NCBI GenBank assembly: GCA_038245785.1
Contig: JBBRSB010000019.1
Coordinates: 1 to 64,000 of the forward strand
Reading direction: 5' to 3'
DNA length: 64,000 bases
Source of the DNA: Gloeobacterales cyanobacterium
Lineage (GTDB): Bacteria > Cyanobacteriota > Cyanobacteriia > Gloeobacterales > PMM-0068
The notes beneath the pieces were generated by a model. It worked only from the letters and a program-made list of their open reading frames with translations, had not been told where the DNA came from and searched no databases. This document shows, in pieces, positions 241 to 6,697 of this stretch (the stretch's first letter is position 1; each line of letters opens with the position of its first letter). Both the position numbers and the translations under genes were made by a program.

Positions 241-972
241 ATGAGATTTTTTTATATTGTATCTAGTTTAATTGTAGTTCTTTTAGCTTTACCTGTTAGA
301 GCTGCCCCAAGTAAACTTGAGCAAATTTTTGACCCTGATATGTTAGTAGCAGACCGAGCATACCTTGAGCAAGTGACCGGCGTTGCCTGGAGAAGAGAGG
401 AAGATACTAAGACATATAAGGTCGATGGTTGCCTTGTTACAGCTACATATGACAAGAATTCGGTAAGGTCTTTGCGACTGGAGCTTAGTCCTAAATGCAC
501 ATTTGACTTTAATAAGTTCTTGCTAAAAGTCAATCCTTATAACCCTTATCCTAAATTTCCCGCCCTATATCAGACAACTTTTGGACAACTAGAGTCTCTT
601 TCACTCATGGATAAGCAATTCATGACTGACTGTTTATACAGCTGCGGAAACATAGCAGACCCATCTGTTTATGAGTACTTGGCATTTCCTCATGTTAATA
701 ACTTTCTAGAGGTTATGCCTGAAGTTATGTTAGTCGGTGATCCGGCTATAGATGCATCAATCAAATGGGAAAAAGCTATGGTGAAGGCAAAAGGAGAGGA
801 TTGGGTTCTCCAGACCAAATTCAATTGCCAGCTCACGAAGTACGACACTGTAGCCCATAACGCCTTCAAGAAAGTCAGAATCACGGCAATCACAGTTGGA
901 CATAACATCAAGACTCCGGGCCATGGACTTTTAACCCCATGGTCTAGTGCCGATGATTGCAGCGGAGGTTAA
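241..972 (+). CDS. Hypothetical secreted protein
   Basis: 243-aa ORF with an N-terminal signal peptide (MRFFYIVSSLIVVLLALPVRA) and several Cys; AT-rich; no family recognised. Confidence 0.75.
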   Translation: MRFFYIVSSLIVVLLALPVRAAPSKLEQIFDPDMLVADRAYLEQVTGVAWRREEDTKTYKVDGCLVTATYDKNSVRSLRLELSPKCTFDFNKFLLKVNPYNPYPKFPALYQTTFGQLESLSLMDKQFMTDCLYSCGNIADPSVYEYLAFPHVNNFLEVMPEVMLVGDPAIDASIKWEKAMVKAKGEDWVLQTKFNCQLTKYDTVAHNAFKKVRITAITVGHNIKTPGHGLLTPWSSADDCSGG

Positions 973-2026: not shown

Positions 2027-2153
2027 AGGGGGATGGTGAAGTAGATCTCAGAGTGCCTAATCAGTATTTATACTGAATTATTCCACATATCCTCCCTATC
2101 TGGCTGATTAGGTGGATATATTCAGCCTATTCCTGGCACTTTCAAGGATTCCG

Positions 2154-2870
2154 TCACAAAACACTAATCAATACTTCTGGTCCAACAGGGGAGCGGGACT
2201 CTGCTATGGGTTCTGCCGTGACCACCAAACCTGAGACCACTGAACTATAGAGTCCTGGCGGCAGTGGAATTTTTTCTACGGCTTTTCCTCCGGTGGTTTT
2301 AAAACGTCCACAGATAACTTTTTCTCCGTCGACTACAGCCCAGAGATGGTACGTCTGGCTGCCTGATAGAGTGGGGAGGTTTTGTACCGAAAGGACAGCA
2401 TCTTGCTTATCTAGGTCCATCACAATCCCTCCTGAAGCTTTGACGGCAGTACCCGTCCCCCTCAGAGCAAAGAGGCGTGTATTGGGTTGCTGGAGCATGG
2501 CAATAACCCCTTCATCCTGATTGCGTAGACGATAACTATCCAGCCCAAAACCAAGGGCTAAGGCTGCGGCTACCCCTGCTAGAGCCCAACTCCAGCGTAA
2601 AGGGATGGGGCGTCTTGAAGGGCGCGCTTGCTTGGAAGACTGGAACGCTTGAAATTCATTCAAAATTGCTGACTGTACCCGAGGAGGCGGACTGACGGGT
2701 TGCGGGGCATAGGCCATCAGCCCTAGGGAGGTCTGTACTCGTTCTACTTCATCAGTGAGTTCGGGTTGTCGCGCAAGAAGCTGCTCAAGCTCTTCTGCTT
2801 CCGCAGGCTCCAAATTGCCGAGGACATAGCCTGCGATCAATTCTTCTATGTGTTCAGAGGAGGTGGTCAT
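2154..2870 (-). CDS. RskA-family anti-sigma factor
   Basis: N-terminal ASD (ELIAGYVLGNLEPAE), one TM helix, C-terminal RskA-like domain (YHLWAV...VVTAEP...PVGP); directly downstream of the ECF sigma. Confidence 0.9.
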   Translation of the reverse strand: MTTSSEHIEELIAGYVLGNLEPAEAEELEQLLARQPELTDEVERVQTSLGLMAYAPQPVSPPPRVQSAILNEFQAFQSSKQARPSRRPIPLRWSWALAGVAAALALGFGLDSYRLRNQDEGVIAMLQQPNTRLFALRGTGTAVKASGGIVMDLDKQDAVLSVQNLPTLSGSQTYHLWAVVDGEKVICGRFKTTGGKAVEKIPLPPGLYSSVVSGLVVTAEPIAESRSPVGPEVLISVL

Positions 2871-2885
2871 ATCGAGCCATCATGT

Positions 2886-3476
2886 TTATTTATCGTTACC
2901 CAACGAACTTTGTAGTTGCTGCTTCAGTTTTACTAAGCCCAACCGCAACCAACTTTTGACAGTACCCAAAGGAACATTGCATTGCTGTGCAATTTCTACC
3001 TGGCTAACCCCTCCGAAATAAACCATCTCCAAGGCTTGGCGCTGATTTTCAGGAATTTGGCCCAAAGCTTCGCGCACACGCTCTGCACGCTCCTGCAAAG
3101 AAACTTGCTCGAACAGACTGGAAGGCCCTGTGTCCAAGGGCGTAATCTGGCTCCAGCGCTCCAGGAACTTGAGTTTTCTGCCACGGGCGCGCAGTTTGTC
3201 AATAGACCGTGAGCGCGTTAGCGTCGTCAGATAGCTGCCCAGCGCCCCCCGATTAGGGTCATAGGCATCATTCTTCCAGAGGGAAATGAAAATATCCTGA
3301 GTCATGTCTTCTGCCTCCTGGGAGTCCTTCAAAATTTGCAGTGCCAGTCCATAGACAATCGGCGCGTACCTCTGGTAGAGGGCATTCAGCGCGGAGGTTT
3401 GTCCTGCTTTTAGGCCCTGAAAGAGTTGTTGATCCGTAGGAGTGGTCTGTTTTTGACCAGGAACGTCGGAATTCAT
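2886..3476 (-). CDS. ECF (SigK-like) RNA polymerase sigma factor
   Basis: Region 2 (EAEDMTQDIFISLW, RSRSIDKLR) and region 4 (GVSQVEIA...PLGTVKSWLRLGL); ATG at 3476 preferred over the track start at 3506. Confidence 0.93.
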   Translation of the reverse strand: MNSDVPGQKQTTPTDQQLFQGLKAGQTSALNALYQRYAPIVYGLALQILKDSQEAEDMTQDIFISLWKNDAYDPNRGALGSYLTTLTRSRSIDKLRARGRKLKFLERWSQITPLDTGPSSLFEQVSLQERAERVREALGQIPENQRQALEMVYFGGVSQVEIAQQCNVPLGTVKSWLRLGLVKLKQQLQSSLGNDK

Positions 3477-3526
3477 TTGGTTTCCAGAATAAGCCCAAGT
3501 GCACATTCTGATGAGATTCCGTCGTT

Positions 3527-3565
3527 TCTGTTATTGATACGCCAGCCGACCTTACTTAGATCACT
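3527..3565 (-). promoter_or_regulatory. Putative ECF promoter of the sigma/anti-sigma operon (autoregulatory)
   Basis: Minus strand GTGATCT-aagtaaggtcggctg-GCGTA-tcaataa-CAGA; same spacing as the three plus-strand copies. Confidence 0.8.
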
Positions 3566-3605
3566 GGCAGGTTATATAAATTTTTTCATGCCCGTAAATC
3601 CCTGG

Positions 3606-3644
3606 GGTGATCCATCAAGGCTCCTCAAGCGTATCTAGGACAGA
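3606..3644 (+). promoter_or_regulatory. Putative ECF promoter, copy 1
   Basis: ggtgatccatcaaggctcctcaagcgtatctaggacaga, 23 nt upstream of the ATG at 3668. Confidence 0.85.
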
Positions 3645-3667
3645 AATAATAGACAGCGGTGTTGGAG

Positions 3668-3958
3668 ATGACAGTTTTATCCCTATTCAGAAACAAAGTC
3701 GATTTGCTACACCCCATACGCCAATGGATGGAAGCTTTAGCAATGCCGAACCCAAGAGTCGCTCGACTACTCTGTACGCTCATCCCTGCTCAGTGCCCTT
3801 TTGCACGAGATATCAAGTTTGCGGGACACACCTTTTTGCATATCCCGCCCCTATGTAAGTTGAATCCACTTTTTGAACAGTTCGTTAGTCTTCGCTTTCG
3901 AGCTTTATCGTATCTTGCAGATGAATGTGGTGAAGATATAATGCCCTATGTCTCATAA
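3668..3958 (+). CDS. Mo-dependent nitrogenase C-terminal (Mo-nitro_C)-like domain protein of unknown function
   Basis: LCTLIPAQCPFARDI...HIPPLCKLNPLFEQ...LRFRALSYLADECGED matches this cyanobacterial family. Confidence 0.88.
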   Translation: MTVLSLFRNKVDLLHPIRQWMEALAMPNPRVARLLCTLIPAQCPFARDIKFAGHTFLHIPPLCKLNPLFEQFVSLRFRALSYLADECGEDIMPYVS

Positions 3959-4033
3959 ATTAATGGTTTCAACTATAGTAAATTTCTGATTAATAGTAGA
4001 TGAAATATTTTCCTGTTCTTTAGTCTCATCTAT

Positions 4034-4062
4034 GCCCCCCAAGTCTCACAACCTTGGGGGGC
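4034..4062 (+). terminator. GC-rich hairpin, probable terminator
   Basis: gccccccaag / cttggggggc perfect 10-bp stem downstream of the CDS. Confidence 0.55.
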
Positions 4063-4100
4063 TATTACTATGTTTTCTTTACAAAAGAATTTTCTTTTTT

Positions 4101-4139
4101 GGTGATCCATCGAAGCTCCTCTGGCGTAATTAGGTCAGA
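4101..4139 (+). promoter_or_regulatory. Putative ECF promoter, copy 2
   Basis: ggtgatccatcgaagctcctctggcgtaattaggtcaga. Confidence 0.85.
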
Positions 4140-4176
4140 GCTGAGATAAATGCTCATACAAGAAAGAGGAAGAGCA

Positions 4177-4398
4177 ATGAAAGATTCTAATTCGGTAGAT
4201 ACGCAAAGTTTTCTGTACCCTCGCAGTCGCTACTATGGTCAATTTACCCCTGCGAATCTAGTCTTCAATGCTAACCTGCAGGAGTTTTCTCAAAGAGTTG
4301 GTTTCATCACCAGTTTGCAAACGTCTGGCAAGGTTTCTGCTGAAGAAGCTTATAGCCAAATTGAACTGCTTTGGGACCGATTTACTGCTAGTAAATAA
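4177..4398 (+). CDS. Small conserved cyanobacterial protein (FLYP..RYYG.FTP.NLVFNANLQEF family)
   Basis: Recognisable conserved motif; RBS-like GAGGA upstream of ATG 4177; the stop may be premature. Confidence 0.85.
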   Translation: MKDSNSVDTQSFLYPRSRYYGQFTPANLVFNANLQEFSQRVGFITSLQTSGKVSAEEAYSQIELLWDRFTASK

Positions 4399-4469
4399 GC
4401 AGTAGGAATTGGGACCGATACTGCGATGTGAGAATAAGCGTCGGCCGGAGGTAAACCATTTGTAGATTT

Positions 4470-4508
4470 GGTGATCTATCTAAACTCCTCCAGCGTAATT
4501 AGTTCAGA
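4470..4508 (+). promoter_or_regulatory. Putative ECF promoter, copy 3
   Basis: ggtgatctatctaaactcctccagcgtaattagttcaga. Confidence 0.85.
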
Positions 4509-4545
4509 GCTACAAAAAAAGTTTCTCTAAAACTATGGAGTAACC

Positions 4546-4944
4546 ATGAAAACTATGCACAAGATTTCTCTCATAACTATAGCTGGCCTCTTGATGCTGG
4601 CAAGTCCTGTTATCGCTGGAAGTTTTACTACTTTTGCTGTGTCTGCAACAGCAGGTAAAGAAGTCTCCGGACCAGGGCATAGCAATGGAAGTGCCTCCGC
4701 TAATTTAACTCTTAATCCTGAAAGAGAAGAAGTTTGCTTCGAGATTCAAGCTAAGGGCATTGCCTCAGCAACCCTGGCGCATATTCATGCTGGTGCTGCT
4801 GGAATGTCAGGTCCTGTTGTGATTAGTCTCACTGCTCCTACAGAAGGCTTCTCAAAAGGCTGTGCTCGTGCCAGTCGTGAACTTATCCAACAGATTTCCC
4901 AGAATCCTGAGAACTTCTATCTCAACATCGGAGTTCTTAGATAA
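4546..4944 (+). CDS. Secreted CHRD-domain protein, C-terminally truncated
   Basis: Signal peptide; EV..PG, AHIH.G.AG.SGPVV and NPENFYLN motifs; lacks the terminal H...GEIRGQ motif. Confidence 0.8.
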   Translation: MKTMHKISLITIAGLLMLASPVIAGSFTTFAVSATAGKEVSGPGHSNGSASANLTLNPEREEVCFEIQAKGIASATLAHIHAGAAGMSGPVVISLTAPTEGFSKGCARASRELIQQISQNPENFYLNIGVLR

Positions 4945-4974
4945 ACCTTTATTCACTAATTTTGGTAACAGGCC

Positions 4975-5631
4975 ATGGCTAACGCGCTCACTTCCTTAAA
5001 TATGGACAGTTCCAAGCTCATTCTTCAAGATCTCTATCGAGGACGGCCACTTTGGTCTTATCCTGCAGGTAGAAGGATTCCTATTTTCGAAGATGAAATA
5101 GGTATTGTGTATCGCGGCATTGTCCGTACACAGACCTTGCAGCAGGGAGGCGAGGAGTCTATCGTAGGCTTGGTAGGCCCAATGATGCCTGTTTCCCCAA
5201 AATTTACGATGCTCAATTACTATGAAGTCTATGCCTTAACGCCCGTAGAGCTTTTGCGTTTGAAATGGGCCGAAGTCTATAGATCTAATGATTTGATGCG
5301 AGAGCTAAACCGTACCTTGATTCAGCGGCTCCGTCATACTGAAGTATTACTTGATTTAAGGAGTAAACGGCAAATCAGCGAACGTTTGATTGCCTTCTTA
5401 TCCTTCTTAGCTCAAGCATATGGTAACCCAACGCCTCAAGGGGTCCGCTTAGAAATTCAGTTAACCCATCAACAGATGGCTGATGCTATTAATACAACGC
5501 GGGTTACGATCACACGGTTGATGGGAGTACTTAAAAAAGCCTCTATGATTAGAGTCGCCCAAGACCGCACTATTTATGTCATGAGTGAACTATTCAATAG
5601 CCAAGAGTTTAACTTTATAAATAAGAATTGA
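4975..5631 (+). CDS. Crp/Fnr-family transcriptional regulator
   Basis: C-terminal HTH LTHQQMADAINTTRVTITRLM; N-terminal cNMP-like domain. Confidence 0.9.
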   Translation: MANALTSLNMDSSKLILQDLYRGRPLWSYPAGRRIPIFEDEIGIVYRGIVRTQTLQQGGEESIVGLVGPMMPVSPKFTMLNYYEVYALTPVELLRLKWAEVYRSNDLMRELNRTLIQRLRHTEVLLDLRSKRQISERLIAFLSFLAQAYGNPTPQGVRLEIQLTHQQMADAINTTRVTITRLMGVLKKASMIRVAQDRTIYVMSELFNSQEFNFINKN

Positions 5632-5875
5632 TGAGAAGCTAGACACCTTAATCTAGCTTACTTTTCTTCAAAAACTAACTGATAGTTCAGCGAAAGTCAG
5701 ATAGTAGTTATCACTTTAGTTAGGGTGCGATTCAAGACGTTTATCAGATGTTTTCTCAAGTTGAATCTCTACGATGAAGACACTAAACAACAAATCTCAA
5801 TCTTTCAAGGAGAAAAACATGGACAGTAAACAAAGCCTCAAGGGTACTTCCGTACCTAACGGGGGATATCAAGCC

Positions 5876-6448
5876 ATGAAAGCATTTCCAATAACCAGTT
5901 CCTTGCTGCTGCTCGCTTTTTTGCTTGGCCCTGTTGCCCTCTCGGCTGATACTGCTTATGCCCAGAGTCCCGCCCCATGCACAATCCGAACGGTCAATGG
6001 GCACTACCTAACTGCAGCGGGCGGCGGAGGTCTAAACCACCAGGCCATTTACACCGATGCGACCCAGGCTAATGATTTGGAGCACTTCGCGCTGGAAGTC
6101 GTGGGAGGCATTCCGGTCATTAAGACAGTGAATGGCTACTACCTGACCGCAGTAGGTGGCGGTGGGCGTAACTCCGACGTTATTCACACCGATGCAACCC
6201 AGGCGCAGGCCTGGGAGTCGTTGGATTTGGAGTACCTTGGGGTAGCCAGAGACGGCACCTGGTATGCCATCAAGACAGTGAATGGGAATTACCTGACCGC
6301 TGTAGGCGGCGGCGGACACCGTGGAGAGCCCCAGGATACCCTCCACTCCGACGCGACCAAGGTCGACGATTGGGAAAAGTTCAAGGTCTTTTGTCAAGGG
6401 GATGGTGGAGGACTCCCTCAGTGTTTGGTTGGAAGAGTGCTGTGCTAA
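5876..6448 (+). CDS. Secreted fascin-like beta-trefoil repeat protein
   Basis: Signal peptide MKAFPITSSLLLLAFLLGPVALS; three repeats I(R/K)TVNG.YLTA.GGGG...(T/S)DAT. Confidence 0.8.
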   Translation: MKAFPITSSLLLLAFLLGPVALSADTAYAQSPAPCTIRTVNGHYLTAAGGGGLNHQAIYTDATQANDLEHFALEVVGGIPVIKTVNGYYLTAVGGGGRNSDVIHTDATQAQAWESLDLEYLGVARDGTWYAIKTVNGNYLTAVGGGGHRGEPQDTLHSDATKVDDWEKFKVFCQGDGGGLPQCLVGRVLC

Positions 6449-6697
6449 GACGGCCTAGAGATCTCCAGAGAAGCCCATTTAGGGGAGTCTCCAGGCCCCC
6501 TCCGACCTATTCTCCTTGCTTCCCGCCAATACCAATAAGGCCCATGCATCTCCCCACCAGCACATCGACACTGCTCTTTCCCACACCAAATTAACTCCTT
6601 GAAAGAGGTTCATCCATAATGCAGCGTTCAAAACTGGAGCCGTATGGTATTAACTAGTTGAAAACCAACCCGCTCAAGAGTCTGATGCCTATTCCTA

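Follow-up and report, generated by a model that had tools for sequence, protein, structure and literature searches.

How does one stress sigma factor come to stand beside several near-identical promoters, each leading into a different gene, and how stable is such an arrangement? The question is raised by positions 2154-5631 of the window, the whole 64,000-nt stretch analyzed here from a Gloeobacterales cyanobacterium (contig JBBRSB010000019.1 of assembly GCA_038245785.1), where genes for an ECF (extracytoplasmic function) sigma factor and its RskA-type anti-sigma factor lie among four copies of one sequence motif. Within its 5.0-Mb assembly (G000, whose contigs carry C-numbers below) the window corresponds to contig C19, and it was compared with G001 and G002, genomes of the same genus, and with contigs from the public sequencing runs X2, X3, X4 and X9. 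On balance, it is probable that this regulon has been rewired by promoter copying, in which a cassette of ~55 bp was placed before promoterless incoming genes and the sigma factor would read GTGATCY-N16-CGTA. Promoter activity, start sites, the sigma factor that reads the sites, the signal and the direction of change are all deduced here from sequence comparison.

Four Predicted Promoter Copies and Their Predicted Start Sites

The pattern GTGATCY-N15-GCGTA matches the window four times, at 3607-3633, 4102-4128 and 4471-4497 on the plus strand and at 3538-3564 on the minus strand, and does not occur in 100 dinucleotide shuffles of the window (mean 0.00, largest 0). All four sites carry CAGA 7 nt past CGTA, while ATC and CTCCTC are common to the spacers of the three plus-strand copies. 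The first-pass annotation, made from the letters alone, had reported both the places and the shared letters correctly. The predicted promoters are as follows.

3527..3564, minus strand: predicted promoter for autoregulation, with its start expected at 3529, the first A of CAGA
3607..3644, plus strand: promoter copy 1, divergent from the sigma gene; predicted +1 at 3642
4098..4155, plus strand: promoter copy 2 with the start of its leader, a reused unit of ~55 bp; core 4102-4139, predicted +1 at 4137
4467..4511, plus strand: promoter copy 3, with its core at 4471-4508 and +1 predicted at 4506

Copies 2 and 3 are identical at 39 of 45 bases. The CAGA most likely marks the transcription start site; a pyrimidine-purine step occupies its start position in 24 of 39 hand-picked sites of other genomes, with YAGA in 6. 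No Rfam match was obtained at E of 1 or less.

Of 30 homologous sigma loci in other genomes, 15 have the shorter form ATCY-N16-CGTR in the 200 nt upstream, which supports the promoter reading well, and the four repeats are likely promoters for the adjacent stress sigma factor. The proposal of an autoregulated ECF promoter is supported and stands as a prediction. In three genomes of this order the motif also precedes genes for DUF4331 and ferritin-like proteins, a CGTA-type site stands before 8 of 25 distinct CHRD genes, and we regard the motif as a predicted, family-wide ECF promoter. Among fasciclin genes, 5 of 30 have a site at N16 (two of the five doubtful) versus 0-1 at other spacings. Leu in sigma region 4.2 may go with TGATC promoters, as six loci suggest, although these are kin and the two clades do not separate. 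A related-locus search returned five loci, one of them cyanobacterial. At one homologous locus (L174:3134-5376, genome G033), the sigma gene is followed by two tandem RskA genes, and three TGATC-type sites lie within 2 kb upstream. A candidate huge regulon in genome G009 (52 sites versus 7 for the reversed pattern) was rejected: spacers of 12-20 give 361 matches there, about 39 per other spacing, and most fetched sites fall inside frames. Counts of the pattern over 301 genomes were uninformative on the same grounds as in G009.

The Sigma Factor and Its Anti-Sigma Factor

Two minus-strand genes encode the regulatory pair.

2154..2870, minus strand: RskA-type anti-sigma factor, 238 aa (PF10099, 60.6 bits; NF052375 above cut-off)
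2886..3476, minus strand: ECF sigma factor of the PRK12519 family, 196 aa (Sigma70_r2/r4_2; 257 bits versus a cut-off of 222)

The open frame of the sigma gene extends to 3506, with a likely start at 3476, the Met corresponding to the one at which the G001 ortholog begins. The protein has a single Cys, at 166, and lacks the sigma-4 Cys pair of the proteobacterial ECF18 group, also in alignment to SigK; it falls below the cut-off of the SigK profile, and its best match in the PDB is R. sphaeroides SigE, narrowly above SigK. The anti-sigma factor, 79% identical in G001, has one Cys, no HxxxCxxC and, in the Pfam scan, no match to a cupin domain. Its best 19-residue Kyte-Doolittle mean is 1.36, at residue 94 just ahead of RskA_C. 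The earlier claim of a membrane RskA sensor in place of ChrR thus stands as to the family, and the membrane part is weakly predicted. The labels RskA_C, Sigma70_r2/r4_2, Mo-nitro_C, DUF7219, CHRD and HTH_Crp_2 all hold in the Pfam scan.

The ECF19 group is described by an RskA-like anti-sigma factor encoded at +1, ATC in the -35 and CG or TG in the -10 element, with 5.65% cyanobacterial members and one transmembrane helix in 79.7% of its anti-sigma factors (PMC7826278; this and the other papers are drawn on in part). Both the gene at +1 (PF10099 on 2154-2870) and the promoter letters are found here. The ECF11 (RpoE-ChrR) group is represented by its promoter, TGATCC-N16-CGTA, and not by a ChrR anti-sigma factor with zinc motif and cupin. 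By anti-sigma and promoter features, the protein is putatively classed as an ECF19-type, cyanobacterial PRK12519/SigI-like ECF sigma factor with an RskA anti-sigma factor, an assignment from sequence.

In G001 the core of the self promoter is kept, and 7 of 23 non-core bases differ. Over 3525-3645, at least 11 substitutions are listed in related contigs, the table holding up to 7 further changes beyond these, and all 11 lie outside the 30 core positions (p ~0.04).

Sites on Other Contigs and a Second Sigma Factor

The genome scan that the first-pass annotation had proposed was run with a matrix built from the four window sites. Two strong further sites emerged, C27:48337 (41.5 bits, before a gene for an acidic protein) and C9:94747 (37.4, before a NarL-type regulator), along with two weaker and less secure ones, C1:99309 (26.0, before a short stub) and C38:9636 (22.4, before a polyketide-cyclase-fold protein); the next matches score 20.5 and 19.3. 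With four sites on other contigs, the regulon is not self-contained, as had been thought. At none of the eight sites is the gene immediately behind matched to a photolyase family or to a fatty-acid cyclopropane synthase family.

A paralog of the sigma factor, 51% identical, is encoded on C53 beside thioredoxin and CcdA genes. A state in which most target copies are silent or in decay, or in which this paralog reads them rather than the adjacent sigma factor, is highly improbable. Damage to two of the four local targets, the apparent gene stub behind the C1 site and the ATCC-N16-CGTA shared by the paralog's own sites would agree with such a state; yet the 11 listed substitutions all miss the core, and the paralog's sites read CATCC or AATCC, not TGATC.

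Several side observations concern these contigs. Two ATCC-N16-CGTA sites lie with the paralogous sigma-RskA pair and its thioredoxin and CcdA neighbors in G000:C53:1714-4684 (L170), and the cytochrome b561 gene at C11:17019-17627, also preceded by a CATCC-type site, is likely a target of this paralog. A run of small acidic proteins, without Pfam match where scanned, occupies G000:C27:47830-52154 (L166, L388; also L381) and adjoins a baseplate gp25 gene (Pfam match on the G002 homolog); one acidic gene has a copy of the ECF promoter. At G000:C1:99414-99560 (L168), promoter and ribosome site lead into five codons resembling the start of the acidic family, after which follows a stretch that resembles an integron attC site by eye.

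Shared Spacers Point to Descent

At the 23 non-core positions, the three local target sites share 15-18 bases among themselves. Identity to these local targets is 15/23 for the C27 site, 12-17/23 for the C9 site and 9-11/23 for the self promoter, whereas 741 pairs from other genomes average 7.0, with one pair reaching 15 or more. This contrast points to descent, in keeping with the promoter duplication suggested in the first-pass annotation, and CTCCTC most likely reflects origin from one promoter cassette. The C27 and C1 sites share leaders too.

A different explanation would have CTCCTC be an element read by the sigma or a second factor, separating the targets from those of the C53 paralog, with the sites having arisen separately. 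CTCC-like runs do occur in the C27, C9, C1 and C38 sites, and spacer sequence can modulate ECF selectivity (PMC5758882). Nevertheless, the self promoter lacks CTCCTC in both G000 and G001, as do the other collected TGATC-type sites (11 shown), and the likeness runs past the core into the leaders, as in C27 versus C1, so that we hold a read element to be decidedly unlikely. The spacer columns under CTCCTC in 39 sites of other genomes carry 0.05-0.19 bits.

Reused leaders are not confined to this motif: 49 families cover 151 of the 3,237 upstream regions of G000, the largest being palindromic repeats. The cassette pattern found one unrelated-looking match among metagenome contigs and none among viral contigs. 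The equal distance of 75 nt from site to ATG in copies 2 and 3 was rejected as a mark of a duplicated unit; DUF7219 keeps the ribosome site of its ortholog.

Target Genes and Their Alleles

Behind the three plus-strand promoters lie the following features.

3668..3958, plus strand: stand-alone Mo-nitro_C gene (PF06967), likely captured
4034..4062, plus strand: likely terminator, a 10-bp hairpin then a T-rich run, read from the sequence; flanking context common with G002
4177..4398, plus strand: DUF7219 gene (PF23856) flanked by two promoter copies and ending at an early stop
4546..4929, plus strand: 5' part of a secreted CHRD gene (PF07452 positions 2-103 of 117 only)
4930..6614, plus strand: 1,685-bp insert with a 4-nt flanking direct repeat (contig joint 4925-6611)
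4975..5631, plus strand: Crp-family regulator on the insert, with ~45 nt of its own leader (HTH_Crp_2; PtrA-like, below cut-off)
5636-5659: terminator-like hairpin after Crp, from the hairpin scan
5877..6448, plus strand: fascin-like repeat protein gene on the insert (weak PF06268, below cut-off), with its own repeated leader at 5732-5787
6611..6660, plus strand: decayed 3' CHRD remnant on the right of the joint, recognized against the end of CHRD in G002

The hairpin at 4034..4062 was not flagged by the hairpin scan, whose loop limit is 8. The fascin-like gene has a G+C content of 0.56 versus 0.41-0.51 in its neighbors.

Contigs from the sequencing runs, placed at a likeness of 80%, derive from mixed communities and so represent relatives rather than this strain. 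Contigs of X2 (depth 50.1) and X4 (8.28), from two studies, bring 6611 directly behind 4925, and four letters at the joint can be assigned to either flank. The joint indicates that the 1,685 bp with Crp and the fascin-like gene was inserted into CHRD. The form with the insert occurs in X2 as well. CHRD is likely the old target and is now split. The Crp gene is 86.6% identical in nucleotides to a paralog at C1:222156-222855, and their homology begins at the insert junction with ~45 nt of leader, which makes it likely that Crp is read from copy 3. The pairwise comparison with this paralog (nonsynonymous rate dN 0.078, synonymous rate dS 0.40, dN/dS ~0.19) does not indicate which branch was under selection. 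A further Crp paralog, G000:C7:3142-3792, has three in-frame stops and is probably a pseudogene; Crp-family paralogs are numerous in this genome.

Other contigs differ in cargo. One from X4 joins 4150 to 4523, giving Mo-nitro_C, one promoter and CHRD without DUF7219 (depth 4.3). One X2 contig joins 4165 to 5864 and thereby sets the fascin-like gene directly behind copy 2, and contigs of X2 and X9 match the unit 4091-4161 only, continuing into other start codons. At position 4396, contigs of X2 and X3 have C where the window has T, and the DUF7219 stop codon is a sense codon there. The joint 4060-4467 (X2, X3) was rejected as a DUF7219-free allele: 45 letters beyond it fit either copy.

A stronger form of promoter copying would make the ECF promoter of this cyanobacterial genus a landing pad, an integrase-free, sigma-controlled cassette array in which promoterless genes recombine in and duplicate the promoter, every event bringing one more gene into the regulon, while the old target keeps its copy. 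We put this forward tentatively, as possible and rather less than probable. If true, wild populations would carry differing cargo behind the same switch: DUF7219, CHRD, fascin-like and acidic proteins, and Crp.

These alleles also bear on the first-pass proposal of a self-contained photo-oxidative regulon. Taken as a stable circuit in which Crp is built in as the second tier, it now appears very unlikely. In its favor, the promoter core is the same as the RpoE-ChrR consensus, ECF18 and ECF19 have light-linked members (PMC7826278), Crp shows the dN/dS given above, and sigI of Synechococcus elongatus UTEX 2973 goes up under high light (log2 +1.31, with a start 23 nt upstream; PMC6091082). Against this stand the four sites elsewhere, the lack of any photolyase or cyclopropane synthase gene directly behind the eight sites, a split CHRD, a shortened DUF7219 and a polymorphic Crp insert. 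No result of the analysis points to singlet oxygen or photo-oxidation, and a Crp gene on a polymorphic insert that breaks CHRD makes a doubtful stable tier.

The Locus in Sister Genomes

The sigma operon of G001 borders on the suf operon, and between them, at the position of copy 1, lies a broken relic of the divergent promoter with a lengthened spacer. The G002 locus has one promoter and a whole CHRD gene (155 aa), without DUF7219; its -35 reads GTGTTCC. No sigma ortholog was found in G002 (97% complete). At the C38 locus, G002 keeps GTGATCC and has CGGA in place of CGTA, so that both homologous sites carry a core change in this genome without a found sigma ortholog.

Orthologs of Mo-nitro_C (83% in nucleotides, at G001:C40 and G002:C137) stand behind a different leader, with homology starting at 3665, and the DUF7219 ortholog (79%, at G001:C8) likewise lies elsewhere than the sigma locus and behind that same alternative leader. 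Across cyanobacteria, distant upstream site matches were found twice for Mo-nitro_C (70 of 101 matches examined) and once for DUF7219 (50 of 79 examined), and 16 own-genome paralogs of Mo-nitro_C, DUF7219 and Crp have no near site. The conserved regulatory context that had been expected for Mo-nitro_C and DUF7219 does not extend to the sister genomes: the motif is absent upstream of the orthologs of both, a result that the first-pass annotation had itself named as counting against its reading. The function of neither protein should be read from this locus.

A second reused leader, with AAGTCA repeats at 11-nt spacing and then an AT-rich block, precedes Mo-nitro_C and DUF7219 genes in the genus (L377:5150-5366, L378:6823-7040, L379:1548-1790 and 98-322, G000:C8:113900-114110). 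In G000, a Mo-nitro_C paralog occupies the slot of the G001 DUF7219, beside an AraC-type gene. Between L378 and L377 and G000, gene order is almost wholly shuffled at ~80-85% nucleotide identity.

Gain or Erosion of the Array

The distribution just described could also arise if a three-promoter array were ancestral in the genus and eroding by deletion between repeats, its genes having moved away in sister lineages. The broken promoter that G001 retains without a gene behind it, the tendency of direct repeats to favor deletion and the alternative Mo-nitro_C context common to G001 and G002 all fit such erosion. Opposed to it are the Mo-nitro_C and DUF7219 homologs across cyanobacteria without a site, the alternative leader that also precedes a Mo-nitro_C paralog in this genome, and the Crp insert, which splits a gene that is whole in G002 and makes that step a gain. 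Erosion therefore seems unlikely; gain is favored by the absence of the site from homologs elsewhere and by the disruption of a gene through the Crp insert.

Under rewiring by promoter copying, the sigma gene and CHRD would have begun as divergent partners. DUF7219, and probably Mo-nitro_C, would have entered with a duplicated promoter; later, the 1.7-kb insert would have split CHRD and placed Crp behind its promoter, Crp thus entering an existing transcription unit. The RskA-type anti-sigma factor would hold the sigma factor inactive until an envelope signal arrives, probably through proteolysis as for RskA, and the freed sigma factor would amplify itself and transcribe short units from each promoter copy.

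Several points weigh against this scheme. The direction of change is unrooted: G001 and G002, alike in their Mo-nitro_C context, are possibly sister genomes, and a single-promoter allele would also result if the sequence between repeats were deleted. The DUF7219-free allele comes from the one X4 contig, at the depth and likeness stated. The C53 paralog could read the same sites, and the short core is barely enriched upstream of genes, with 14 at N16 versus 2-12 at other spacings over the 3,237 crudely called upstream regions of G000. G001 has the sigma factor, yet no intact site before its ortholog of the C38 cyclase. No site precedes the five short CHRD homologs that are closest beyond the genus (L240, L245, L259, L260, L265). 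In UTEX 2973, where sigI adjoins a CHRD gene (PMC6091082 Table S1), that gene has, among the rows listed, an antisense start only and no sense start.

Other Features of the Region

A third repeated leader, TCAAGACGTTTWTCAGATG, lies at window 5732-5787 and recurs at C1:98291, C11:48863, C55:4183 and C4:18519; it stands before the fascin-like gene and before two or more unrelated genes, and is a possible promoter or operator. Just past the anti-sigma gene, at window 2055-2130, is an inverted-repeat element that recurs on at least five other contigs. Genes at window 241-972 and 1244-2026 (243 and 260 aa) have no Pfam or NCBIfam match, and their upstream regions belong to small repeat families.

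Comparison with Known Systems

Sigma type, promoter core and promoter reuse are already known. The locus resembles ECF19 (SigK-RskA of Mycobacterium; the cyanobacterial SigI-type) in its RskA gene at +1 and its ATC/CG promoter, whereas its sigma factor lacks a sigma-4 cysteine pair. The ECF19 description, in the part cited, gives no cyanobacterial consensus or CHRD target (PMC7826278), and the targets here differ from it in being copies by descent that vary between strains. The likeness to RpoE-ChrR noted in the first-pass annotation was borne out: the consensus TGATCC-N16-CGTA, known for example from PSPTO_1043 (PMC5507510), has the same core, although here RskA_C comes without the ChrR cupin or zinc motif, and no photolyase gene directly follows a site.

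A 2009 review termed promoter recognition by SigI-type sigma factors unclear (PMC2758279). Todor et al. (2020) predicted regulons for many ECF sigma factors, nearly half of which control three promoters or fewer (PMC7776599); the portion of their supplements consulted has no cyanobacterial rows by name, and predictions under numeric identifiers may exist. The literature search found no paper giving a cyanobacterial SigI-type consensus or CHRD as a target, within the parts of the papers covered.

Putative mobile promoters are highly similar upstream segments before unrelated genes, proposed to allow fast rewiring (Nijveen et al. 2012, PMC3575422). The copies described here match over ~45 bp, slightly below the 50-nt threshold of that work, and differ in being a defined ECF promoter beside its own sigma gene, with alleles with and without cargo. 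The DUF7219 unit also works like insertion with long target duplication (Furuta et al. 2010, PMC2853133), having a duplication of >30 bp, an insert of <20 kb, no mobility gene and a known single-copy allele. It is not a member of that class as defined, since its cargo is DUF7219 rather than restriction-modification (criterion i); moreover, its duplicated target is a promoter, and its copies are 87% alike versus 96-100%.

Set beside these systems, the locus offers an explicit, testable candidate promoter for cyanobacterial SigI-type sigma factors (ATCY-N16-CGTA, with a TGATC subtype) together with CHRD as a recurrent putative target. It also provides a strain-level regulon change with alleles that would stand before and after it, of a kind usually inferred elsewhere from distant genomes.

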